Part shown: piece by piece, positions 9,313 to 32,000 of the stretch
Position numbering within the stretch: the stretch's first letter is position 1
Layout: each line of letters begins with the position of its first letter
Source of the DNA: Cupriavidus necator
Lineage (GTDB): Bacteria > Pseudomonadota > Gammaproteobacteria > Burkholderiales > Burkholderiaceae
Length of the DNA: 32,000 nt
Assembly (NCBI RefSeq): GCF_016127575.1
Contig: NZ_CP066019.1
Coordinates: 360,001 to 392,000, forward strand
Direction: 5' to 3'
Program-made: the position numbers and the translations under genes
Notes under the pieces: generated by a model
Told to the model about the DNA's origin: nothing
Seen by the model: the letters and a program-made list of their open reading frames with translations, nothing else
The model's database searches: none

Positions 9313-10326
9313 CTACTCCACGGGGATGCCGGCAGTCTTTACGATGTCGCGCGTGCGTTGTATCTCGGCGAGCTGGAAGTCGCGCAGGCGGGTGGTGCTG
9401 CCGGTGTACACGGTGCCGCCCAGGCTCTCGACGAATTTCACGCCGGCGGGCGCCTGCAGGGCCGCGCGCACGGCGTCCGACAGGCTCTTGATGATCGGCG
9501 CGGGCACGTTGGCGGGCGCGAAGACCCCGGTCCACGCCGAAACGTCGAAGCCCGGCGCGCCGCTTTCGGCCACGGTGGGCACCTCCGGGAGTTCCTTGAG
9601 CCGATGGGTGTCGGTGACCGCAAGCGCGCGCAGGCGGCCGGCCCGGACCAGCGGCATGACCGCGCTGATCTCGGCCATGGAGTAGTCCACCTGTCCGACG
9701 GCGACGTCGGTCATGGCCGGGGCGGTGCCCTTGTAGGCGATCGGGGCGGCGTGGATACCGAAGCGCTCGTTGAGCAGTTCGACGAACACCTGGTAGCCGG
9801 GGCTGCCGGCGGCGTAGTTGAGCTTGCGGGGCGCCTTGCGCGCGCCGTCGACCAGCTCCGCGAGCGTCCGGAACGGGGAGCCGGTCGGCACCACGACGAC
9901 GAGCGCGAAGCGCGCGATGCGTTCCACCGGCGCGAAGTCCTTGACGGGGTCATACGGCAGGTTCCTGAACACGGCGACGTTGGTCACCATGGTCGAGTTG
10001 CTGCCGACAAACAGCGTATAGCCGTCGGGCGCAGCCTCGGCCGCGGCGCGTGCGCCGATGAAGCCGTTGGCGCCTGGGCGGTTCTCCACCACGAACGGCT
10101 GGTGGAACTTCGCCGAGAGTGCCTGGGCGACAAAGCGCGCGGTCGTGTCCGTGCCGCTGCCGGGCGGCAGCGAGACAATGATCTTGACCGGGCGGTTCGG
10201 GTAAGCCGCCTGCGCCAGGGCCGGTTGCATCCACGCGGACGCCGCGGCCACCGCGCACGCCGCCACACATGTCGCCATGAGGCGCCAGCGCCGCCAATAC
10301 GGCAATCGGGGTAGATGAAAGGCCAT
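9313..10326 (-). CDS. Bug family tripartite tricarboxylate transporter substrate-binding protein (TctC-like)
   Basis: Lies in ORF 9313..10377. ATG at 10326 is preceded by AGGAGA. A signal peptide ends at ALAQA, followed by AYPNRPVKIIV. Bug hallmarks follow: ENRPGANG, YKG.AP...D...G.VD. Confidence 0.9.
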   Translation of the reverse strand: MAFHLPRLPYWRRWRLMATCVAACAVAAASAWMQPALAQAAYPNRPVKIIVSLPPGSGTDTTARFVAQALSAKFHQPFVVENRPGANGFIGARAAAEAAPDGYTLFVGSNSTMVTNVAVFRNLPYDPVKDFAPVERIARFALVVVVPTGSPFRTLAELVDGARKAPRKLNYAAGSPGYQVFVELLNERFGIHAAPIAYKGTAPAMTDVAVGQVDYSMAEISAVMPLVRAGRLRALAVTDTHRLKELPEVPTVAESGAPGFDVSAWTGVFAPANVPAPIIKSLSDAVRAALQAPAGVKFVESLGGTVYTGSTTRLRDFQLAEIQRTRDIVKTAGIPVE

Positions 10327-10711
10327 GTCGTCTCCTTGGTTCCCTGGTCTGGTCGTGATCCTGCAAGGGGACGGCACGCCGTCCTTTGAGGGAGTCCGAC
10401 AGATGCTAAGAAGCTGGCGCAGTTGTGAAAAATACTTTCGGTATGTCGATCAATACATGGGATGTATCGGCGCGTGCCGGCCACGGCAAGGCAGAGGGAC
10501 CCGCAATGCCTGATCCAGGTGGCGGATCGTTCCCTGCGCCACGAACTTTGATTAGGGTTTTCCTACGATATATGGCGAAACACTACGAAAACACGTAGTA
10601 TTGGATCGTCGGTATCTGGAAGGTGTCCACGACATCTCGTAGGAATCAGCCGGCACAGGGAGTCTTTGGATCCGGCAAGAGACCGGTGCGATACACAGGA
10701 GATAGTTGGAC
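10327..10711. promoter_or_regulatory. divergent promoter region between two Bug genes
   Basis: A 385-bp, relatively AT-rich gap between divergent starts. It contains the inverted repeats GGACGGC-ac-GCCGTCC (10369-10384) and ACTACG-aaaaca-CGTAGT (10582-10599). I could not recognise a definite sigma-factor consensus. Confidence 0.35.
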
Positions 10712-11758
10712 ATGCTGTCACGAATCCGGAGCCGGCGCCCCCGGTTCCCCGGCCTCGCCCGCCTTCCCAGGCGCTTCGGAACAACCCTGGCGGCGGCCGC
10801 CGCAGTCGTGTGCGGCCTCGCCGCCGCGACGAGCGCATCGCCCGCGCGTGCGCAGGACGGGTATCCCGCCAAGCCGGTCACGATAGTGGTGCCCGCGCCG
10901 CCCGGCGGCATCACCGACCAGCTTGCCCGGCTCGTCGCCTCGCATATGGCCAGGGACTTCGGGATCCAGGTCGTGGTCGACAACCGGGGCGGCGCCGGCG
11001 GCAACATTGCCGCGGAAATCGGCGCGCGTGCGCAGCCTGACGGCTACACCGTCCTGATGGGCACGCAGGGCATGTTTGCCGGCAACCAGTTCCTCTACAA
11101 GGCGCTGCGCTTCGATCCGGAGAAGGACTTTATCGCGGCACAAGGCCTGGTCACCATTCCCAACATCCTGGTGGTGAACAGCCGGTTGCCGTTCCGCTCG
11201 GTCGCGGACCTGGTCACGTACGCCAGGGCCAATCCCGGCAAGCTGACCGTGGCGTCCGTGGGCAACGGCACGGGGACGCACCTGGCCGCCGAACTCTTCC
11301 AGGCCCAGGCGGGAGTGAAGTTCGTCCACATCCCCTACAAGGGCAGCGCGCCTGTCATCAATGACCTGCTGGCGGGACAGGTCGACATGACCTTCGACTA
11401 CCCCGTTTCGACGCTGCCGCAGATCCAGGCGGGCAAGCTGCGCGCGCTCGCGGTCACGAGCAAGGCACGCCTGCCCGCGCTGGCGCAGGTGCCGACCGTG
11501 GCCGAGGCCGGCTATCCCGGGGCGGAAGCCACGTCGTGGATCGGCCTGTTCTTCCCGGCCCGCACCAGTCCGGCCATCGTGGCCAGGTGGCAGGCCGATA
11601 TCGGCCGCCTGCTGGCCGATCCGGCGGTGACCGCCGAGATCCAGCGGATGGGCGCCGCGCCGCTGCCGCTTGGCGGCGAACGTTTCCGCGCCTTCGTGGC
11701 ATCCGAACGCGGGAAGTGGAAGGCCATCATCCAGCGCTCCGGCGCCAGCATTGACTGA
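10712..11758 (+). CDS. Bug family tripartite tricarboxylate transporter substrate-binding protein (TctC-like)
   Basis: Lies in ORF 10706..11758. ATG at 10712 sits 9 nt after AGGAGA (10697-10702); TTG at 10706 is an alternative start. An Arg-rich signal peptide ends at ARAQ, followed by DGYPAKPVTIVVP, DNRGGAGG and YKGSAPVINDLLAGQVD. Confidence 0.9.
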   Translation: MLSRIRSRRPRFPGLARLPRRFGTTLAAAAAVVCGLAAATSASPARAQDGYPAKPVTIVVPAPPGGITDQLARLVASHMARDFGIQVVVDNRGGAGGNIAAEIGARAQPDGYTVLMGTQGMFAGNQFLYKALRFDPEKDFIAAQGLVTIPNILVVNSRLPFRSVADLVTYARANPGKLTVASVGNGTGTHLAAELFQAQAGVKFVHIPYKGSAPVINDLLAGQVDMTFDYPVSTLPQIQAGKLRALAVTSKARLPALAQVPTVAEAGYPGAEATSWIGLFFPARTSPAIVARWQADIGRLLADPAVTAEIQRMGAAPLPLGGERFRAFVASERGKWKAIIQRSGASID

Positions 11759-11838
11759 GCCCGGCTCCCCGACACCCAGGCAGTCCCAGGCCGCCCTGCA
11801 TGGCGCGGCGCGAGGCTGCCCCATCGGCAGAGGCGCAT

Positions 11839-14800
11839 ATGCGTGTAGCACACCAGATCATCCTGACCGACCAGGATCGCTCCCAGCTCGAAACACTTGC
11901 CACCGCGCCGGAGACCCCGGCCAAGGTGGCGCAGCGCGCCCGCATCATCCTGCTGGCGGCGCAAGGCGAGCAGAACAAGATGATTGCGCCCCGCCTCGGC
12001 ATCGGGCGCGCACAGGTCGCGCGCTGGCGCGAGCGCTATGCCCACGCGGGGCTCGGCGGCATCCTGCATGACCTGCCGCGCGGCGCTCCGCCCGTCAGGG
12101 TGGACCTGACGAGGCTGGCGAGGCTGACTGGCGCAGACGGCCCCGACGCGACGCGCGGCTGGAGCATGCGCGGCGTGGCGGCGGAACTGGGCGTCAGCGC
12201 CGCAAGCGTCTCGCGTCACTGGCGCGCGGCGGGACTCGCTTCCGGGCTTGGCGGCCTTGGCGGACTTGGCGGGTTGAATGGGATCAACGGCCGTGCATCC
12301 GGCCCGGCGCCGTTCCATTTCACCGGGCGGGCTGTCGAAATCGTTGCCCTCTACGCAGCCGGGCCCGAGCATGCACTGGTGCTGGCGTTCGACGAGCCTG
12401 CGCATCCGCTGGCCGCCCCTGGCACGTCGGGGGCGGGGGGCCAGAACCTGCGCTCGCTGCCGGCGCACCAGCGCAGCCTTGCCGCATCGCTGCTGACGGC
12501 GCTGCGGATGCTCGATGGCGGGCTTGGCGACGCAAGCGCCGGCGCCCAGCACGAAAGCTGGCTGGGCTTCCTGCGCGACGTGGAGGCGGCCACGCCCGCG
12601 GACCGGCACATCTGGGTCCTGTCGGACAACTACGCCAGCCACCAGCATGCGGACGTCCAGCACTGGGTCCGGCGCCATCCGCGCGTGATGGTGCAACTGG
12701 CACCCAACGGCGCCGCCTGGCTGCGCATGGTGCAGCGGTTCCTGTGCGATGCGCAGACCGTGCGCCGGTCGAGTTTTCCGGCCGCCATTCCGGAGGCGCT
12801 GGCCGCCATCGAAGCGGCTGCGCGGTCGCGCGGCGCGACGCCGTATCGCTGGATCCGCCAGACCGTGCCGCACGGTCCGGCCAACGGCCAATCGCGGGAT
12901 ATGCCGGATATGCCGGATGCGCCGGACGTTCCGCTGGAGCCGCAAGCCGCGAGCCCGCTGTTGCTGCCTGGCCATGCCGTGGCCGAGGGCGAACGTCCCA
13001 TCCAGGCGATCACCAGCACCAAGGTGCTGCCGCCGCGCGGCGCCCGGCAACTGATGCCGCGCGAAGCGCTGATGGGCCGCCTGCTCGACGCCCGCCGCCA
13101 CCGCTGCGTGATGATCCACGGCCAGGCGGGAAGCGGCAAGACCAGCACGCTGATGGCGTGGCGCAAGGCCATGATCTCGCTGGGCTACGACGTCTGCTGG
13201 CTGTCGCTGGCGGCCGAGGACAACGAGCCGGCGCGCTTCCTCGACTATCTGCTTGCCAGCATTGCGGAGGCCGATCCCGCCGCCGCGCGCGAAGCCTCGC
13301 AAGTCGTGGCCGCCGGACACGACGAGGCCGAGATCGAACTGTGGGCGATCACGCTGGTGCAGGGCCTGGCCCGGCGCCAGCGCGAACTGGTGCTGATGAT
13401 CGACGACCTGCACCATGTTTCCGACCCCGCTATCCTGCTGGCGCTGCAGTGGCTGCTGGAGTACGCCCCGCCGCAACTGCACGTGGCGCTGGCCTCGCGC
13501 ACGGCGCTGGACCTGTCGATGGAGCGCCTGCGTCTGCAGAACCAGCTCGCGGAATTCGACATGCGCGACCTGCGCTTCTCGCCCGAGGAATCCGCGCGCT
13601 ACCTGCGCGACCAGCTCGGCAACATTCCGGGCAGCGACGCCGCGGCGCTGCATGAACTGACGGACGGATGGGTGGCCGGGCTGCAACTGTTTGCCATCGG
13701 CCTGCGCACCCGGCAGGCCGGCAGCTACCCGGTGACGCAGGTGCGCGACGCCCGGGCGTTCGCCAGCTTCTTCGAGCGCGAAGTGCTGGTCCGGCTCGCG
13801 CCCGACGATCTCGACATGCTGACCCGGGTGGCCATCTGCCAGCGCTTCTGCGTGCCGCTGTGCGCGGAAATCCTCGGGCAGCCCGACGCTGTGGCGGGCA
13901 TCAAGGCGCGCGTGACGCGGATGGTGGCCGACCATCTGTTCATCACCGTGGTCGGCAGCCACGACAACGAAACCTGGTACCGCATCCACCCGCTGCTGCG
14001 CGAAACGCTGCTCGGCTACCTGGCGGCCCGCGACGAAGCGGAGATACGCGCGCTGCACGCCACGGCCTGGCGCTGGTTCGACGCCCGCGGCCACCTCGAC
14101 GAGGCTGTGCTGCACGCCGTGAGCGCGGGCGAGCCGGACGCCGCCGCGAAGCTGGTCGAAGGGCGCGCGCAGGCGCTGCTCGTCGGCGGCGAACTGAGCC
14201 AGGTGGCGGGCCTGCTGCGCATGCTGCCGCAAGAGCAGGTCAGGCGCAGCTTCCGCCTGCACGTGGCCCACGCCTACATGCTGCTCTACGCGCGCGATTT
14301 CGACAGCCTGCGCCGCAGCCTCGACGAGATGGACGCGCAGCGCGCCAGCGTTGGTACGGTCGGGTGCTATACCGTGTCGCTGCTGCGCGCGGGCATGGCG
14401 CTGCAACTCGACGATATCGACACCGCGGCGGCGCTGCTGCCGGAAATCTGGAACCCGCCGCCGGAGGCCGGCGATTTCACATGGCTTGCCCGCGCCAACG
14501 CGCTGTCCTGGCTGCTGATCCAGCGCGGCGAGCACGATCTGGCGCGCGGGATTCTGGAAGAGGCCGACCTGCGCAGCCGCTCGCCGCGCAGCCGCCAGTT
14601 CGGCCGCTGCGTGCACGCGCTGAGCCTGGTGCGGGAAGGGAAGATCCGCCAGGCCTGCAAGATTGTGCGGGAGGTGCTGGCGGAAGCCGAGGGGTATGGC
14701 GCGGGCTACGTGGCGATGGCGAGCATGGCCGCCGGGCTGCTGGCCGATGCGCTGTACGAGCTGAACGAAACCGAGGCGGCCTGCCAGCTTCTGGAGCCGC

Positions 14801-15711
14801 GCATCGGCATGGTGGAGCGCACTTCGTTGCCGGAGGTGGTGCTGCGGGCCAGCCTGGTGCTGTCGAATTCGCACTGGATCGCCGGGCGGCGCCAGCAGGC
14901 ACTGGCCTGTCTGGACCGGCTGGAGGCCTATGCGGTGCGCTATGGCCTGGACCGGCTGCTGGCCGAGGCGCTGGTGCAGCGGTTGCGCCGGCATCTCCAG
15001 CAGGGCGCGATGGAGCGGGCCAATATCGTCCTCGAATGCGTGCGGGGGCTTGCGCAACGCCATGCCGCTTCGGGTTCGGATTCGGGCCCCGAGCGGGCCC
15101 GCGCGCTCGCCCACGCGGCCGAGCGCGCGGCGATCGACATGGCCCTGCACACCCGCGATTTTGCCGGGGCGCTGGAGCGCATCCAGCCCTTGCTCGATGC
15201 CACCGCGCAGGGACCCGCCACGGCCAGCCTGCGCATGCAGCTTGCCGTGGCGCGGCAGGGGCTGGGGGAGGGGGCGGCGGCTCGGCAGGACTTCGTGACG
15301 GCCTGCCGGCTGGGCCACGGGCTGGGTTTGTCGCGCACGCTGCTGGACGCGCTGGAGGTCATGTCGGACGCCTCCGACGCTCTTATCCGCGAGCCGCTGC
15401 CGGACCCTGTGCTCGGCTTCTACGTGCAGCGCCTGCTGGCGGCGCATCGCACGGCGGCCAGCGAGCGCGGCGCCGCCGATGCCGGGCCGCAGAGCGGCCC
15501 CATCGCCCTGCTGAGCGAGCGCGAGCGCGAAATCCTGTACCTGCTGGCGCAGGCGATGTCCAACAAGAAGATCGCGAGAGTCCTGAATGTCTCCGCCGAG
15601 ACGGTCAAATGGCATCTCAAGAACATCTACGCCAAGCTGGGTGTCGGCGGCCGCGGCGGCGCCGCCGCGCTGCTGCGCGACGTGATGGGGCCGGGCGTGG
15701 TGCCGGCCTGA
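11839..15711 (+). CDS. LuxR-family large ATP-binding (MalT/LAL-type STAND) transcriptional regulator with an N-terminal IS630-type transposase-derived domain
   Basis: Single ORF 11800..15711. ATG at 11839 follows AGAGG; ATG at 11800 is an alternative start.
- nt 11839-12861 align along their full length to IS630-family transposases: HTH (RARIILLAAQGEQNKMIAPRLGIGRAQVARWRERY), FDE (D at 12391), SDNYASH (D at 12625), WLRMVQRF (Q at 12733 where the catalytic E is expected) and the tail PYRWIRQ.
- Walker A GQAGSGKTS lies at 13120-13146 and Walker B LVLMIDDLH follows.
- A long helical/TPR-like region comes next.
- A GerE/LuxR HTH (LSEREREILYLLAQAMSNKKIARVLNVSAETVKWHLKNIYAKLGV) lies at 15511-15645. 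Confidence 0.8.
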   Translation: MRVAHQIILTDQDRSQLETLATAPETPAKVAQRARIILLAAQGEQNKMIAPRLGIGRAQVARWRERYAHAGLGGILHDLPRGAPPVRVDLTRLARLTGADGPDATRGWSMRGVAAELGVSAASVSRHWRAAGLASGLGGLGGLGGLNGINGRASGPAPFHFTGRAVEIVALYAAGPEHALVLAFDEPAHPLAAPGTSGAGGQNLRSLPAHQRSLAASLLTALRMLDGGLGDASAGAQHESWLGFLRDVEAATPADRHIWVLSDNYASHQHADVQHWVRRHPRVMVQLAPNGAAWLRMVQRFLCDAQTVRRSSFPAAIPEALAAIEAAARSRGATPYRWIRQTVPHGPANGQSRDMPDMPDAPDVPLEPQAASPLLLPGHAVAEGERPIQAITSTKVLPPRGARQLMPREALMGRLLDARRHRCVMIHGQAGSGKTSTLMAWRKAMISLGYDVCWLSLAAEDNEPARFLDYLLASIAEADPAAAREASQVVAAGHDEAEIELWAITLVQGLARRQRELVLMIDDLHHVSDPAILLALQWLLEYAPPQLHVALASRTALDLSMERLRLQNQLAEFDMRDLRFSPEESARYLRDQLGNIPGSDAAALHELTDGWVAGLQLFAIGLRTRQAGSYPVTQVRDARAFASFFEREVLVRLAPDDLDMLTRVAICQRFCVPLCAEILGQPDAVAGIKARVTRMVADHLFITVVGSHDNETWYRIHPLLRETLLGYLAARDEAEIRALHATAWRWFDARGHLDEAVLHAVSAGEPDAAAKLVEGRAQALLVGGELSQVAGLLRMLPQEQVRRSFRLHVAHAYMLLYARDFDSLRRSLDEMDAQRASVGTVGCYTVSLLRAGMALQLDDIDTAAALLPEIWNPPPEAGDFTWLARANALSWLLIQRGEHDLARGILEEADLRSRSPRSRQFGRCVHALSLVREGKIRQACKIVREVLAEAEGYGAGYVAMASMAAGLLADALYELNETEAACQLLEPRIGMVERTSLPEVVLRASLVLSNSHWIAGRRQQALACLDRLEAYAVRYGLDRLLAEALVQRLRRHLQQGAMERANIVLECVRGLAQRHAASGSDSGPERARALAHAAERAAIDMALHTRDFAGALERIQPLLDATAQGPATASLRMQLAVARQGLGEGAAARQDFVTACRLGHGLGLSRTLLDALEVMSDASDALIREPLPDPVLGFYVQRLLAAHRTAASERGAADAGPQSGPIALLSEREREILYLLAQAMSNKKIARVLNVSAETVKWHLKNIYAKLGVGGRGGAAALLRDVMGPGVVPA
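12245..12275 (+). repeat. in-frame 9-bp tandem repeat (GLG)n inside the regulator gene
   Basis: ggcttggcg / gccttggcg / gacttggcg plus a partial fourth unit, encoding GLGGLGGLGGL. It lies at the junction of the transposase HTH and catalytic-core regions. Confidence 0.8.
12898..12933 (+). repeat. in-frame 9-bp tandem repeat (D-x-P)4 linker inside the regulator gene
   Basis: gatatgccg / gatatgccg / gatgcgccg / gacgttccg, encoding DMPDMPDAPDVP. It sits exactly between the transposase-derived domain and the STAND module. Confidence 0.8.
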
Positions 15712-15758
15712 TCCTGCCGCCTTCCTGCCGCTGTCCACGCACGCCCGCGTCATGCGGG

Positions 15759-15890
15759 TAATGCCGTTCAGTTTCAGCTGGTCCACCGTCGTCCCCGCGA
15801 AAGCGGGGACCCAGTGGCTTTGAAAGACGCTGGGTTCCCGCTTTCGCGGGAATGACGGTAAGACCAGGAATGCTCAACTGAACGGCATTA
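15759..15890 (+). mobile_element. MITE-like nested-palindrome element (REP/dRS3-like core) with terminal inverted repeats and target duplication
   Basis: Perfect 15-bp TIRs: TAATGCCGTTCAGTT (15759-15773) and AACTGAACGGCATTA (15876-15890). A 12-nt direct repeat GCGTCATGCGGG flanks them (15747-15758 and 15892-15903). The core (15787-15857) is a near-perfect palindrome of two hairpin units, GTCCCC-GCGAAAGC-GGGGAC and GTTCCC-GCTTTCGC-GGGAAT. The element is intergenic. Confidence 0.75.
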
Positions 15891-16122
15891 AGCGTCATGC
15901 GGGCGTGTTGTTGCGGGCGCATTGCGGATTGCCGGAGTGCTCCGCTAGCGCGCCTCATGCGGCGGGTGGTGGTGGCGCGCGGACCTTACGCATGCTTATC
16001 CGCGCGCCATAAGCTCCGCTCCTCCCCATGCCACCCGAGTCGGGGAGTACCTGCCCCGGGCCCGCCGGCCAATCATGGACACACACCTTTCGTTCAACCC
16101 GATTTACTGGAGTGTCCAAGAC

Positions 16123-17034
16123 ATGAGCCTGCTTGAAGGGAAAGTCATCATCGTGACCGGCGCCGGCGCCGGCGTGGGCAAGGGGATCGCGCTGGAGGCG
16201 GCCCGCCAGGGTGCGCGCGTGATCGTCAACGACATCGGCGTCAACATCGACGGCTCGGGCGGCAGCGCCAGCCCCGGCGAACAGGTCGTCGCGGAAATCC
16301 GCGCGGCTGGCGGCGAGGCGGCGGTCAACACCGACAGCGTGGCCGACTGGGGCGCGGCGCAGAAGATCGCCCAGCAGGCCATGGACCTGTATGGCCGCAT
16401 CGATGGCGTGGTCAACAACGCCGGCAACCTGCGCGACGTCCTCTTCCACAAGATGAGCGAAGAAGAGTTCGACGCCGTGATCGCGGTCCACCTCAAGGGC
16501 AGCTGGAACGTCTCGCGCTCGGTGGCGCCGCATTTCAAGGCGCAGGAGAGCGGCGCCTTTGTCCACATGACCTCGACCACCGGCCTGATCGGCAACTTCG
16601 GCCAGGCCAACTATGCGGCGGCCAAGCTCGGCATCGTCGCGCTGTCGAAGTCCATCGCCATCGACATGCAGAAGTTCAACGTGCGCTCCAACTGCATCGC
16701 GCCGTTCGCCTTCACGCGCATGGTCGACAGCGTGCCCGCCAATACGCCGGAAGCGCTGGAACGCCGCAAGGTCAACATGCGCCTGGAGGCCGGCAAGATC
16801 GCGCCGTTCACGCTGGCCCTGCTGGCCGACGAAGCGAAGCACGTCAACGCCCAGGTCTTCGGCGTGCGCAACAACGAAGTCTTCCTGTTCTCCCAGCCGC
16901 GGCCGATCCGCTCGGCCCACAGGAGCGAAGGCTGGACCGTGCAGTCCTGCGTGGAGCATGCCATCCCGATGCTCAAGAGTTCGTTCGTCCCGTTCGAGCT
17001 GTCGCGCGACATCTTCACCTGGGACCCGGTCTGA
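16123..17034 (+). CDS. SDR family (3R)-hydroxyacyl-CoA dehydrogenase, MFE-2 / HSD17B4 N-terminal-domain-like (Hsd4A-like)
   Basis: Lies in ORF 16075..17034. The start is taken as the ATG at 16123 (MSLLEGKVIIVTGAGAGVGKG). VIVNDIG...DG, RIDGVVNNAGNLRD, LKGSWNVSR, GLIGNFGQANYAAAKLG and SNCIAP follow, from memory, the MFE-2 dehydrogenase domain. Confidence 0.85.
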   Translation: MSLLEGKVIIVTGAGAGVGKGIALEAARQGARVIVNDIGVNIDGSGGSASPGEQVVAEIRAAGGEAAVNTDSVADWGAAQKIAQQAMDLYGRIDGVVNNAGNLRDVLFHKMSEEEFDAVIAVHLKGSWNVSRSVAPHFKAQESGAFVHMTSTTGLIGNFGQANYAAAKLGIVALSKSIAIDMQKFNVRSNCIAPFAFTRMVDSVPANTPEALERRKVNMRLEAGKIAPFTLALLADEAKHVNAQVFGVRNNEVFLFSQPRPIRSAHRSEGWTVQSCVEHAIPMLKSSFVPFELSRDIFTWDPV

Positions 17035-31736: not shown

Positions 31737-32000
31737 ATGCCTACGACCAACCCGCATCTTCATTACGTTCCAGCCGGCGTCACGCTTCCCGTGGCGGCGC
31801 ATGAAGGTGATCCCTTTCGAAGCCTGAAGGTCATGGCCGAGGCGAATCCGGACGCCGTCGTGGCCACCGACGAGGCCGGCGGACCGCTGACCTGCGCGCA
31901 GTTGCTGAATGCGAGCCTCATGCTGGCGGGATACATGCAGCAGCGCCTGGATGTCCGCGGCGGCGAGCGTGTGTTGCTGATGCTGCCGGCATATCCCCCG
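31737..32000 (+). CDS. AMP-dependent synthetase/ligase (acyl-CoA ligase) family protein, 5' end only
   Basis: The frame is open from 31608 to the window end, so it is not in the ORF track. The translation ...MAEANPDAVVATDEAGGPLTCAQLLNASLMLAGYMQQRLDVRGGERVLLMLP has the typical N-terminal layout of adenylate-forming ligases. The start is uncertain: ATG at 31659, 31692, 31707, 31737 or 31833. Confidence 0.6.
   Translation, partial: MPTTNPHLHYVPAGVTLPVAAHEGDPFRSLKVMAEANPDAVVATDEAGGPLTCAQLLNASLMLAGYMQQRLDVRGGERVLLMLPAYPP

Follow-up and report, generated by a model that had tools for sequence, protein, structure and literature searches.

Does a gene that begins as a transposase and ends as a transcriptional regulator encode one working protein, and what would the transposase part contribute to it? 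The question is raised by CAJ95192.1 from chromosome 2 of Cupriavidus necator H16, whose gene lies within the window, the stretch of 32,000 nucleotides analysed here. An original prediction, made from the letters of this DNA, held that a dead IS630-type transposase module had been recruited as an additional N-terminal domain of a MalT/LAL regulator. We propose, with a probability of roughly 0.6, that the protein is a pathway-specific MalT/LAL-type activator of an acyl-CoA catabolic regulon whose N-terminus is a domesticated IS630-family transposase. Its parts are as follows.

11839-15711, plus strand: whole gene, a 1290-residue fusion regulator (ORF and translation; exact match to AM260480.1; start common to ~45 homologues)
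11839-12093, plus strand: HTH1, transposase-derived, residues 1-85 (Pfam HTH_23, HTH_29 and HTH_28 at 28-85)
12094-12243, plus strand: HTH2, transposase-derived, residues 86-135 (weak HTH_32 match at 60-128)
12244-12342, plus strand: variable linker with GLGGLGGLGGLNGING repeat, residues 136-168 (23% identity, pLDDT <50, GC3 dip)
12343-12873, plus strand: degenerate DDE/RNase H-like remnant, residues 169-345 (aligned with the DDE_3 portion of IS630-type transposases)
12874-13014, plus strand: junction linker including DMPDMPDAPDVP, residues 346-392 (20% identity; dN/dS 0.5-0.9)
13015-13758, plus strand: MalT-type N-terminal arm and nucleotide-binding oligomerisation domain (AAA_16 at 411-545; NF003420)
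13759-15438, plus strand: winged-helix and helical (TPR-like) sensor region of the STAND module (PF25873 and PF17874 records)
15508-15666, plus strand: C-terminal GerE/LuxR-type HTH (PF00196, E=3.4e-21, residues 1224-1276)

The gene is, as first described, one uninterrupted frame of 1290 codons plus stop. The longest mechanical ORF offers an earlier possible ATG at 11800; the start at 11839 (MRVA...), with GGCAGAGG 5 nt 5′ of it, is the one shared by the homologues. The high GC3 reported for the transposase-like part extends along the whole gene (0.80-0.95), the single exception being a dip to 0.70 at the GLGG repeat linker. Could translation begin near 12901 and yield the STAND-LuxR part alone, the preceding region being a newly inserted IS, a pseudogene or the product of a wrong start? 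Met codons at residues 355 and 358 would permit this, and a homologue of 927 residues that lacks the N-domain (P0041) is on record, but the linker holding those codons is not conserved, whereas the MRVA N-terminus and the entire frame are, and GC3 is high throughout. P0041 is nested among fused proteins and comes from a metagenome contig of 6.3 kb, so that it was probably truncated in gene calling or lost the domain secondarily. Initiation near 12901 is unlikely, since the upstream frame is conserved and free of stops in all homologues, and misannotation in any of these forms seems very improbable to us.

Residues 1-345 match IS630-family transposases from end to end. The NCBIfam profile transpos_IS630 (NF033545) detects the homology claimed for the first ~340 residues at E=9.6e-26 (90.9 bits; residues 32-298 versus profile positions 1-265 of 299), and an exhaustive HMMER search returned 11,629 matches to residues 1-354, including standalone proteins of 340-365 residues aligned end to end (1-341 versus 1-337). 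In tblastn, the transposase of an active IS spans residues 1-311 at 43% identity. The four short IS630 motifs that had been named are located at AFDEP 183-187, SDNYASH 262-268, WLRMVQRF 294-301 and PYRW 335-338. The triad positions are D185 (12391-12393), D263 (GAC, 12625-12627) and Q299 (CAG, 12733-12735), the last being Gln, 36 residues after the second Asp, just as predicted. The segment between the two Asp residues had been called shortened and degenerate; a KSQVQALDRTQPG... stretch is indeed gone, but the segment is little shorter, with a spacing of 78 residues versus 83 in the active IS. Pfam DDE_3 gives E=0.16 for the remnant and 7.7e-22 for the active IS. The AF2 model of the RNase H-like domain has a pLDDT of 87.5. 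A Foldseek search with the domain-only model gave no significant match and retrieved no relative of RNase H fold from the PDB, and the top matches of the N-domain model, with weak E-values, were the Mos1 mariner transposase and the TIR-bound SETMAR DNA-binding domain. The junction linker stands in place of the transposase C-terminal tail, and alignment to the IS transposase stops there.

The active IS nearest to the N-domain is multicopy, ~1.15 kb long, bounded by terminal inverted repeats (TIRs) and inserted in CTAG; the nearest named relatives are ISBmu8-family transposases. Transposase and N-domain are 42-43% identical end to end; at the DNA level, IS and gene share 71% identity over 305 nt. 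Consistent with the reported absence of terminal inverted repeats and target duplication, the TIR of this IS has 0 matches in the 32-kb window when up to 3 mismatches are allowed, and blastn of the whole IS against the window matched coding sequence only, with no terminal repeats; neither the TIR scan nor blastn found a copy of the IS there, and no target duplication is present. Active copies elsewhere had been named as a sign of recent insertion. Other Cupriavidus genomes do have related copies, but with only 42% identity to the N-domain these point to the lineage of origin and not to recent insertion. The ~50 homologues in one clade, together with the missing terminal repeats, speak strongly against a recent IS insertion or artefact.

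These full-length fusion homologues (~50 database clusters, 44-64% identity) come from Cupriavidus and Paraburkholderia, several per genome, and supply the orthologues carrying the fusion that the original prediction had asked about. A literature search found no paper describing a transposase-MalT fusion, in keeping with the earlier remark that no LAL regulator of such architecture was known; in the databases, however, the architecture is shared by all of these clusters, under names as inconsistent as 'IS630 family transposase', 'serine/threonine protein kinase', 'LuxR C-terminal-related regulator' and 'MalT'. The fusions form one clade with unfused proteins as its sister group, and their N- and C-terminal halves diverge in step (Spearman rho 0.81); by this phylogeny the fusion is old and monophyletic. 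With dN/dS of 0.17-0.32 in the HTH part and 0.35-0.39 in the RNase H-like part, versus 0.5-3.3 in the linkers, the N-domain is under purifying selection. HTH1, present in every variant, is its best-conserved part (66% mean pairwise identity), and over residues 28-85 the family consensus agrees with the active IS transposase at 51/58 positions (88%). HTH2 (57% within the family, 54% identical to the IS transposase) is degenerate or lost in P0002, P0051 and P0052, and the variable linker, at 23% mean pairwise identity, is an insertion relative to the IS transposase. In the triad columns of 43 members the first Asp is variable, the second Asp is kept in 39/43, and Gln, whose conservation had been in question, likewise in 39/43, with Glu in none; on this alignment the catalytic triad is broken across the whole family. 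Several lineages have deleted the RNase H-like part and retain the HTH. To judge from these natural deletion variants, what was recruited and has stayed constant is the HTH DNA-binding region, and the RNase H-like remnant is dispensable in some lineages.

Could the module be a passenger, a co-translated relic decaying at the head of an ordinary LAL regulator? The loss of the triad, a hardly detectable Pfam DDE_3, deletions of pieces in several lineages and the existence of unfused sister proteins would all fit, but the frame has stayed open over 345 codons in at least 43 proteins diverged to 44% identity, the HTH is more conserved (66% identity) than the ATPase domain (63%), N-domain dN/dS is 0.17-0.39 versus at least 0.5 in the linkers, and HTH1 is absent from no fused variant. 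We consider such a relic improbable. Monophyly, purifying selection and the Gln of 39/43 members favour recruitment of a dead IS630 module, and the N-module is very probably a domesticated, translated and selected fusion. The fusion arose a single time, in a Burkholderiaceae ancestor, when an IS of the ISBmu8-like lineage, which remains active in genomes of Ralstonia and of other Cupriavidus, was joined to a MalT-like regulator gene at its 5′ end. The fused IS then shed its terminal repeats, C-terminal tail and catalytic triad, and the fusion afterwards multiplied into paralogues, each beside a beta-oxidation-like gene cluster.

Residues 393-1290 make up a STAND ATPase of the MalT/LAL type that includes a GerE DNA-binding domain. 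The repeat linker followed by a complete MalT-like module is found as described: linker DMPDMPDAPDVP at 354-365, TKVLPPR at 394-400, Walker A GQAGSGKTS at 428-436 (13120-13146), Walker B LVLMIDDLH at 517-525 (13387-13413), a MalT profile match (NF003420, E=4e-71, residues 394-866) and the GerE match listed above. PF25873 (WHD_MalT) is recorded for CAJ95192.1 and PF17874 (TPR_MalT) for many homologues. Mean pairwise identity in the family is 63% for the nucleotide-binding domain and 75% for the GerE HTH, where dN/dS is 0.12-0.15.

What this protein might regulate is suggested by a new element, a conserved promoter downstream of the fusion regulators that occurs twice in the window (16031 and 31664).

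16008-16017, plus strand: upstream box CATAAGCTCC, a weakened copy of ATAAGTTCCA (sole CATAAGYTCC match in the 32-kb window)
16031-16048, plus strand: family operator CCACCCGAGTCGGGGAGT, an imperfect palindrome centred at ~-44 from the inferred transcription start (exact window match)
16071-16076, plus strand: -10-like hexamer AATCAT, 22 nt past the operator (conserved [AG]AT[CG]AT)
31664-31681, plus strand: second exact family operator CCACCCGCGTCGGGGAGT, preceding an AMP-binding (acyl-CoA synthetase) gene that starts at 31737

Exact operator matches in the window number 2, versus 0.06 expected. The operator lies 60-330 nt 3′ of the stop codon in 12/14 genome fusion loci (11 by exact core, and L083 with one substitution), and its GGGGAGT core occurs in 5/7 metagenome fusions and 0/69 unfused relatives. 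An [AG]AT[CG]AT hexamer follows at 21-22 nt in all family promoters, at 31703-31708 (AATCAT) in the second promoter of the window. After the first promoter comes an SDR-ACAD-ACAD-MaoC-TctC operon (16.1-21.2 kb), its SDR gene most likely starting at 16123 (MSLLEGKVIIVTGAGAGVGK), and an acyl-CoA catabolic gene cluster surrounds every paralogue examined. A simple sigma-70 scan found no promoter, as expected if the promoter is activator-dependent; the absent match lends no support either. In the same strain a beta-oxidation-adjacent regulator, identified as LuxR-family only, acts positively (PMC12285253). Our fusion regulator is probably a local activator acting through the conserved operator.

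Many family promoters also carry one or two upstream boxes, ATAAGTTCCA, that match the motif in the inner part of the source IS's terminal repeats. A matrix built solely from 39 IS ends (TIR positions 23-34) has 14 matches in 1,600 nt upstream of operators versus 136 in 271,891 nt of background (binomial p=2e-13), and because the promoters compared are orthologous or paralogous, and so related by descent, these may collapse to one or a few ancestral coincidences; by a rough estimate, a single coincidence at 19-20 bits has a probability of ~4e-4. TIR blocks 1-12 and 12-23 give 1 match each upstream of operators, and 0/300 column-shuffled matrices reach 14. Matches of at least 15 bits number 8 in 273 kb of fusion loci (7 in regulator-flanking promoters) and 0 in 555 kb of unfused-relative loci. 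Box offsets are fixed at 31-34 and 56-57 nt. The H16 box at 16008, at 5.7 bits, is just below the 6.4-bit threshold; CATAAGCTCC is also the only TA[AG]G[CT]TCC match in the window and begins 34 nt upstream of GGGGAG, as in orthologues, and the second H16 promoter (31664) has merely CCATATGCGCC at the box position. In Group-B paralogues the operator has no box upstream, and a related box sits upstream of the regulator gene. The boxes could alternatively be bound by the GerE domain or another protein.

By analogy with the Mos1 and Tc3 transposase complexes, HTH1 would pair with the inner TIR block, and we give even odds that the N-terminal HTH binds the TIR-like boxes. Two other roles are conceivable. 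The module, translated and conserved, may be a protein-protein, oligomerisation or autoinhibition part of the STAND ATPase, occupying the N-terminal place, next to the nucleotide-binding domain, where STAND proteins usually have effector domains, with the boxes bound by GerE or another factor. Purifying selection on the RNase H-like part, its invariant W241, F244, L245, W294 and W338 and its predicted compact fold agree with such a role. We nonetheless think it unlikely, as the HTH pair is conserved most, with recognition helices nearly unchanged from the active transposase, lineages lacking the RNase H-like part have retained the HTH, and the sequence of the promoter box matches that of the TIR sub-site cognate to this HTH. 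Less probable still is that the module binds the TIRs of active related ISs, as an inhibitor or a coupling to metabolism, and not catabolic promoters. The 88% identity over residues 28-85 would suit this, as would a Cupriavidus sp. KK10 replicon with 8 places matching the IS transposase alongside fusion P0036, but the surroundings of the fusions examined are catabolic clusters that have a family-specific operator, what occurs at fixed promoter positions is the inner block of the TIR and not its full length, and the window holds no IS copy.

For the activator that we favour, we infer a mechanism from sequence alone, as regards binding, start sites and the protein N-terminus alike. Inducer and ATP at the STAND module would cause oligomerisation, as in MalT, and the GerE domains would bind the palindrome CCACCCG-N3-CGGGGAG(T), centred at ~-44 and overlapping the -35 region, switching on the SDR operon as well as the promoter at 31.66 kb that precedes the acyl-CoA synthetase gene. 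A second DNA-binding activity, on the boxes at fixed distances of ~-68 and ~-92, upstream of the operator, would come from the transposase-derived HTH, mainly HTH1. Classical MalT promoters have distal activator sites, for which the inner-TIR-like boxes are the proposed substitute in the fusion family. The RNase H-like remnant would perform no chemistry and have at most the role of a spacer or of a scaffold for dimerisation.

On the best reading, a transposase DNA-binding module may thus have been co-opted along with its own binding site. The architecture defines a family in which CAJ95192.1 is one member among several paralogues per genome.

The gene that we call the fusion regulator carries a catalytically dead IS630 transposase as a conserved and selected N-terminal domain, and it belongs to a family of MalT-like regulators that goes together with acyl-CoA catabolic clusters and with a promoter specific to the family. 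It occupies positions 11839-15711 of the window on the plus strand, as a single uninterrupted frame of 1290 codons and a stop. The longest mechanical ORF begins at 11800; the MRVA... start at 11839 is common to ∼45 homologues and is preceded by a Shine-Dalgarno-like GGCAGAGG. The protein is identical to CAJ95192.1 from C. necator H16 chromosome 2 (AM260480.1, ∼446.5-450.4 kb), and the same sequence goes by the public names 'Serine/threonine protein kinase', 'IS630 family transposase' and 'LuxR C-terminal-related transcriptional regulator'. GC3 stays at 0.80-0.95 over the whole frame, with one dip, to 0.70, at the GLGG repeat linker. An internal start, which would leave the transposase-like part as an untranslated relic, is hardly credible, since the linker contains no Met and no motif that is conserved in the family alignment.

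The original prediction had read IS630 and MalT/LAL motifs in this frame, and all of them are in place, with GAC at codon 263 and CAG at codon 299. Among Pfam models, the homeodomain-like HTH_23, HTH_29 and HTH_28 match residues 28-85, and HTH_32 matches residues 60-128 weakly; the bipartite HTH region is present and aligns with positions 1-110 of the NCBIfam profile transpos_IS630 (NF033545). Homology to IS630 transposases, as predicted, was recovered by this profile, which matches residues 32-298 over positions 1-265 of 299 (E=9.6e-26), but at 90.9 bits the score is just below the curated cutoff of 100 bits, and Pfam detects only a trace of DDE_3 (E=0.16, residues 238-306). An exhaustive HMMER search with residues 1-354 gave 11,629 matches, many of them end-to-end with standalone proteins of 340-365 residues; a sequence search of the PDB with the same residues gave none. 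The remainder of the protein contains AAA_16 at residues 411-545 (Pfam), Walker A (GQAGSGKTS, 428-436) and Walker B (LVLMIDDLH, 517-525) motifs that are both conserved in the family, and a C-terminal LuxR-type HTH (GerE, PF00196, residues 1224-1276, E=3.4e-21). PF25873 (WHD_MalT) is on record for this exact protein and PF17874 (TPR_MalT) for many of its homologues, and the NCBIfam MalT profile NF003420 matches residues 394-866 (E=4e-71) with 240.1 bits, far below its equivalog cutoff of 537 bits.

In an AlphaFold2 model of residues 1-345 (pLDDT 79.5), an alpha/beta domain comes after two helical bundles, and residues 137-155 and 195-203 are disordered. When this model was compared with the PDB by Foldseek, the mariner transposase Mos1 ranked first (4u7b, 5hoo, 3hos), followed by 7s03, the SETMAR DNA-binding domain on its terminal inverted repeat (TIR), and, lower in the ranking, by the Pax5 paired domain (1k78), none of them at E<=1e-3. 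A domain-only model of residues 160-345 reached pLDDT 87.5 and pTM 0.85 and returned only noise from Foldseek, and we do not claim the RNase H fold of this segment as structurally verified. As no Foldseek match was significant, the argument for a transposase origin is one from sequence and not from fold comparison.

Alignment of the N-domain with genome contigs showed that most matching loci are copies of a multicopy element of ∼1.15 kb, whose hosts include C. necator A5-1 (at least 5 copies), Ralstonia pickettii, Thiobacillus, Acidithiobacillus, Ideonella and others. The transposase of this active IS, of 361 residues, matches DDE_3 strongly and has a full triad (D173, D256, E292). Its identity to the fusion regulator is 42-43% over residues 1-340 and 62% over HTH1, the first of the two HTH units; the family consensus agrees with the IS transposase at 51 of 58 positions across residues 28-85, and at the DNA level the IS and the fusion gene share 71% identity over 305 nt. 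Relatives at 62-63% identity bear the PGAP name 'IS630-like element ISBmu8 family'. The active IS is located in CTAG and ends in 34-bp terminal repeats with the consensus TAGTGTAGTGTTGCATTCT[TG]NNTGGAACTTA[TA]. The original prediction had found neither terminal repeats nor a TA (here CTAG) duplication around the gene, and our searches agree: the window, scanned for a 26-nt TIR pattern from the closest active IS with as many as 3 mismatches allowed, gave no match, the whole IS compared with the window by blastn matches the coding sequence only, in one copy, and ungapped matching of whole TIRs beside 7 fusion genes gave background levels. The fusion is present once in the window, its orthologues are syntenic and not scattered at unrelated sites, and the same flanking operon accompanies them in H16, in a second C. 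necator assembly (L082) and at several metagenome and Cupriavidus loci. We consider a role for the N-domain in controlling the active IS very improbable; the domain resembles the transposase of that element, most closely over HTH1, and none of the element outside the coding sequence has a match in the window.

An inverted repeat, 11638-11663/12830-12855 (26 nt, 81% complementary, ∼1.2 kb apart), brackets the transposase-like part and was considered as a pair of relic TIRs. We rejected it as a chance GC-rich match, since its left arm is inside the TctC coding sequence and neither arm is like the IS repeat.

Among 5.8 billion proteins searched, ∼50 clusters with lengths of 1230-1340 residues matched the fusion regulator at 44-64% identity with at least 98% query coverage; their sources are Cupriavidus (necator, taiwanensis, oxalaticus, pinatubonensis, lacunae, yeoncheonensis and several further strains) and Paraburkholderia sacchari. 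In the genome-contig scan, which added a locus from Paraburkholderia sp. J41, active IS copies made up most of the loci and no more than three were fusions (L001, L020 and L073); the taxonomic range is therefore drawn mainly from the protein search. Each genome holds several fusion paralogues. A neighbour-joining tree of the STAND-LuxR part places the fused proteins in one clade with unfused proteins of 880-920 residues as its sister group, so that the fusion, whose presence in orthologues the original prediction had left to be looked for, falls within a single clade. Pairwise distances in the N-domain and in the STAND-LuxR part are correlated (Spearman rho 0.81), and a single fusion with later gene duplication is the simplest history.

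Conservation and selection by segment of the fusion regulator. Identity is the mean pairwise value among 43 full-length members; dN/dS was calculated by the Nei-Gojobori method against three relatives, with dS near saturation in two of the three comparisons.
HTH1 (residues 1-85): identity 66%
HTH2 (residues 86-135): identity 57%
HTH: dN/dS 0.17-0.32
RNase H-like part (residues 169-345): identity 28-44%; dN/dS 0.35-0.39
Two linkers (residues 136-168 and 346-392): identity 20-23%; dN/dS 0.5-3.3
ATPase domain: identity 63%; dN/dS 0.23-0.31
GerE: identity 75%; dN/dS 0.12-0.15

Both dN/dS and per-segment identity indicate that the transposase-derived part is under purifying selection. Its triad positions are D185, D263 and Q299 (CAG at 12733-12735), within regions that read CVDEKS, DNYATHK and NxVERFF in intact IS630 relatives. 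Asp is not conserved at the first position among the 43 members (E in 12, D in 8, G in 7, R in 6, A in 4, S in 4, and others), the second Asp is retained in 39, and at the third, where an exchange of Glu for Gln had been noticed in this one protein, Gln is found in 39, His in 3, Arg in 1 and Glu in none. The segment between the two Asp residues, which had been described as shortened, is so to a small degree (78 residues versus 83 in the closest active transposase), but it has lost the KSQVQALDRTQPG... stretch. Four homologues (P0016, P0017, P0018 and P0175) retain HTH1 and HTH2 and have no RNase H-like part, and two (P0051 and P0052) retain HTH1 alone. Identities, dN/dS and deletion variants together mark the HTH region as what is constant and selected; the RNase H-like remnant, although constrained in members that have it, is dispensable. 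We think it improbable that the N-domain is a passenger relic, an idea for which the loss of the remnant in some members might be cited and against which the selection on the HTH region must be set. Domestication of the transposase is well supported.

A locus from C. taiwanensis (L089) carries an unfused MalT-like gene (13362-15780, >900 residues) 3.5 kb downstream of the fused P0042 in the same cluster, and this pair might provide a natural comparison of function. The nearest unfused relatives of the N-domain are standalone proteins of 334-365 residues (P0129, P0132, P0137, P0143, P0153 and P0157). Several of them are without the first catalytic Asp and/or the DNY motif, so IS630 derivatives that are degenerate and possibly domesticated may occur as genes of their own as well.

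The genes around the fusion regulator are acyl-CoA catabolic, not maltose, genes. Two Bug/TctC receptor genes and an operon for a CoA-transferase, an enoyl-CoA hydratase and an SDR lie upstream, and an SDR, two acyl-CoA dehydrogenases, a MaoC dehydratase and a TctC gene lie downstream; the downstream SDR operon is retained beside orthologues, and other paralogues occur in distinct though analogous clusters that contain thiolase, hydratase, dehydrogenase, CoA ligase and TctC genes. On the same chromosome, the LuxR-family protein H16_B1342 is needed for hexanoate-induced expression of the H16_B1332-B1337 beta-oxidation cluster, a case in the same strain of a LuxR-family regulator that lies beside a beta-oxidation cluster and acts as a positive regulator of hexanoate genes (PMC12285253).

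Alignment of the regions downstream of orthologous regulators revealed a conserved block, which consists of an imperfect palindrome, C[AC]CCCG-N3-[CT]GGGGAGT, and of [AG]AT[CG]AT 21-22 nt later. The palindrome, which we term the family operator, lies 60-330 nt past the stop codon in 12 of 14 genome fusion loci, and its GGGGAGT core is found no more than 450 nt downstream of 5/7 metagenome fusions as compared with 0/69 unfused relatives. The window contains two exact copies where 0.06 would be expected by chance, and the associated features are as follows.
16031-16048: family operator, first copy, preceding the SDR operon
26552-30986: genes for an ATP-grasp CoA ligase, a ChsH2-like protein, a thiolase-like protein and a DUF2889 protein, left of the second operator
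31664-31681: family operator, second copy, CCACCCGCGTCGGGGAGT, followed by AATCAT (to 31708)
31737-32000: AMP-binding (acyl-CoA synthetase) gene downstream of the second operator, truncated by the right edge of the window

In other genomes the gene set of 26552-30986 adjoins the regulator itself, and the regulon therefore looks split in H16. The conserved operator ends 21-22 nt before the -10-like hexamer and is accompanied by no -35 match; a simple scan of 10300-16200 detected neither a promoter nor a terminator. In the H16 annotation the SDR begins at 16075 (319 residues), with an ATG that is within the conserved -10-like motif CAATCATGG, and the second C. necator assembly starts it at the equivalent of 16123 (303 residues, MSLLEGKVIIVTGAGAGVGK); the start is probably at 16123, the better match to an SDR N-terminus, and not at 16075. 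With the hexamer taken as the -10 element, transcription is predicted to begin ∼7 nt past 16076, GGGGAGT occupies ∼-41 to -35 and the centre of the palindrome falls near -44, which is the geometry of class II activator sites and MalT boxes. A nested palindromic element of ∼165 bp (15740-15907), with inverted repeats at 15785-15821/15823-15859 and 15759-15773/15876-15890 and a flanking direct repeat, GCGTCATGCGGG, lies between the regulator stop codon and this promoter. It is missing from the orthologous intergenic regions of L001, L083, L086 and L091 and thus looks like a REP- or MITE-type insertion.

Many of the family promoters have a further motif, CATAAG[TC]TCC[AG], upstream of the operator. 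This box starts 31-34 nt before GGGGAG, often with a second direct copy at 56-57 nt (at 44 nt in one case), and its sequence, ATAAGTTCCA, is the reverse complement of a conserved inner block, TGGAACTTAT, of the terminal repeats of the source element. The resemblance was evaluated with position weight matrices made from 39 distinct IS ends only, with promoters not used. The matrix for repeat positions 23-34 had 14 matches in the 1,600 nt upstream of operators, distributed over 9 of 15 promoter windows, and 136 matches in the other 271,891 nt of 19 fusion loci (binomial p=2e-13). Since these promoters share ancestry, the evidence that is truly independent may come down to a few ancestral coincidences or to one, and by a rough estimate a single coincidence at 19-20 bits has a probability of ∼4e-4. 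The matrices for positions 1-12 and 12-23 matched once each upstream of operators, and none of 300 column-shuffled matrices reached 14 matches (mean 1.6, maximum 11). At 15 bits or above, where real terminal repeats score a median of 19.2 bits and the matrix threshold is 6.4 bits, there are 8 matches in 273 kb of fusion loci, 7 of them in promoters flanking the regulator gene, and none in 555 kb around 73 unfused relatives. The H16 box, CCATAAGCTCCG at 16007-16018, scores 5.7 bits, just under the threshold, and the second H16 promoter (31664) has only CCATATGCGCC at the box position. Local alignment of the TIR consensus with individual promoters gave p=0.003 for L083, p=0.007 for L093, p=0.01 for L001 and p=0.027 for L086; the two H16 promoters were not significant (p=0.21 and 0.90), so the claim is made for the family and not from H16 by itself.

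In the thiolase-type (group-B) paralogues the box is absent upstream of the operator, and [TG]TTATG[TC]TCTAC is found 50-65 nt upstream of the regulator's own start, at L087 (∼5943), L089 (∼5936), L092 (∼4941), L094 (∼4951) and L165 (∼281). There it sits in the divergent promoter region that the regulator shares with an operon for an enoyl-CoA hydratase and an acyl-CoA dehydrogenase, a placement that hints at autoregulation. Upstream of the operator the thiolase-type promoters share TTTCATNCGMAACAC; a relationship to the mid-TIR sequence ATGCAACAC was considered and dropped as not significant (p=0.07-0.5).

We propose that the recognition system of an IS was domesticated in both of its halves, the DNA-binding domain as an accessory domain of STAND and, independently, TetR factors, and the inner TIR sub-site as a promoter box at a fixed position, and we give this proposal a probability of about 0.45. 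The GerE domains would bind the palindromic operator, and the transposase-derived HTH, chiefly HTH1, would bind the boxes that resemble the inner repeat. Inducer- and ATP-driven oligomerisation of the STAND domain could then join contacts spaced ∼24 bp apart, at ∼-44, -68 and -92. In mariner and Tc3 complexes, the counterpart of HTH1 touches the inner part of the terminal repeat. The pattern is coherent: HTH1 is most conserved and never lost, and its presumed sub-site is the sole repeat block retained, while HTH2 is less conserved and sometimes lost, and the outer repeat blocks are absent. The N-domain might alternatively be a non-DNA-binding scaffold or an autoinhibitory module, which we regard as unlikely; the box matches concentrated upstream of operators count against it. 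Domestication of both halves is a specific and testable hypothesis of mechanism, and it is unproven. If true, it would add a third, regularly spaced (∼24 bp) class of site to a MalT-like nucleoprotein assembly.

With E. coli MalT and the LAL regulators the fusion regulator has in common an N-terminal arm, a Walker A/B oligomerisation domain, a MalT winged helix, a helical sensor and a C-terminal GerE HTH, and it adjoins catabolic genes that it presumably activates. The G-rich half-site of its operator, GGGGAG(T), overlaps the -35 region and is reminiscent of MalT boxes (GGGGA[T/G]GAGG, centred near -38). In contrast to MalT, it has ∼390 extra transposase-derived N-terminal residues, its operator is a palindrome, and its distal elements are TIR-like boxes and not more copies of the site for the C-terminal domain; at 240 bits versus a 537-bit cutoff, it is not an orthologue but part of a MalT-like paralogous family. 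Compared with IS630 (ISBmu8-like) elements of the Tc1/mariner/IS630 superfamily, residues 1-345 are homologous end to end, including the bipartite HTH, the LPRGAPP connector, DNY-x-x-H, the W-L-x-x-V-[EQ]-R-F helix and the P-[FY]-x-W tail. Unlike these elements, the fusion is a single copy in the window, syntenic in orthologues and devoid of TIRs and TA/CTAG duplication, with a broken triad (Gln299, and a first Asp that is not conserved in the family), and it has lost the KSQVQALDRT stretch and the C-terminal 20 residues and falls below the NCBIfam cutoff.

In concept, the nearest parallel comes from eukaryotes. SETMAR (Metnase), found in anthropoid primates and one of the eukaryotic domesticated Tc1/mariner or pogo transposases, joins a transposase from this superfamily in frame with a regulatory protein of the host, with a DNA-binding domain under purifying selection that binds genomic TIR-derived sites and with its third catalytic residue replaced. 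The fusion regulator is alike in its in-frame fusion, in the purifying selection that preserves its DNA-binding domain and in the replacement of its third catalytic residue, and the SETMAR DNA-binding domain was among the best Foldseek matches of the N-domain model (none at E<=1e-3). It differs in that it is bacterial, that the partner is a STAND ATPase activator and not a histone methyltransferase, that its promoters hold only a 10-12-nt inner TIR sub-site at fixed positions, and that its family has grown into a set of local pathway regulators. Among prokaryotes, the TnpB-derived TldR regulators set a precedent for converting a transposon protein into a transcription factor. As in TldR, a bacterial mobile-element nuclease has lost catalysis and would be reused for sequence-specific regulation; TldR is RuvC-like and RNA-guided, whereas the fusion combines a DDE domain with a protein HTH, has no guide RNA, and uses its transposase part as an accessory domain of a larger regulator.

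Three metagenome proteins (P0126, P0162 and P0139) join the same IS630 lineage (MRVAPEI..., LPRGAP) to a complete TetR (TetR_N and TetR_C_24), the first two with a degenerate DDE part and P0139 with the HTH only. They are an independent second type of transposase-regulator fusion, and their origin from the same IS lineage suggests a more general phenomenon. Eight other proteins of 470-1470 residues (P0123, P0124, P0127, P0128, P0134, P0169, P0173 and P0233) match the IS630-type HTH in 5-11 stretches, with nine HTH_23 repeats in P0124, and are tandem arrays of transposase-type DNA-binding domains.

In eukaryotes, regulatory novelty is well known to arise from transposases that were domesticated into transcription factors, with transposon ends as their sites. 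As far as the literature that we found extends, domestication of DDE transposases into bacterial regulators is almost undocumented; our full-text searches found no account of an IS630-LAL fusion and no DDE-transposase-derived bacterial transcription factor with co-opted repeat sites. If our proposal is true, the family would stand as the equivalent, in prokaryotes, of transposon-derived regulatory networks of the SETMAR/Hsmar1 type. It is a tractable case in C. necator H16, which is genetically amenable and used in industry. With the active element, the complete fusion, natural variants that retain only the HTH and the unfused sister regulators all extant, the predicted operator and boxes are directly testable. 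The fusion also explains why genes of this family have been annotated inconsistently as an 'IS630 family transposase', a 'serine/threonine protein kinase' or a 'LuxR regulator'. Finally, the family directs attention to how several redundant beta-oxidation-like clusters are regulated and from which promoters, clusters that are important in the use of fatty acids and volatile fatty acids by C. necator.
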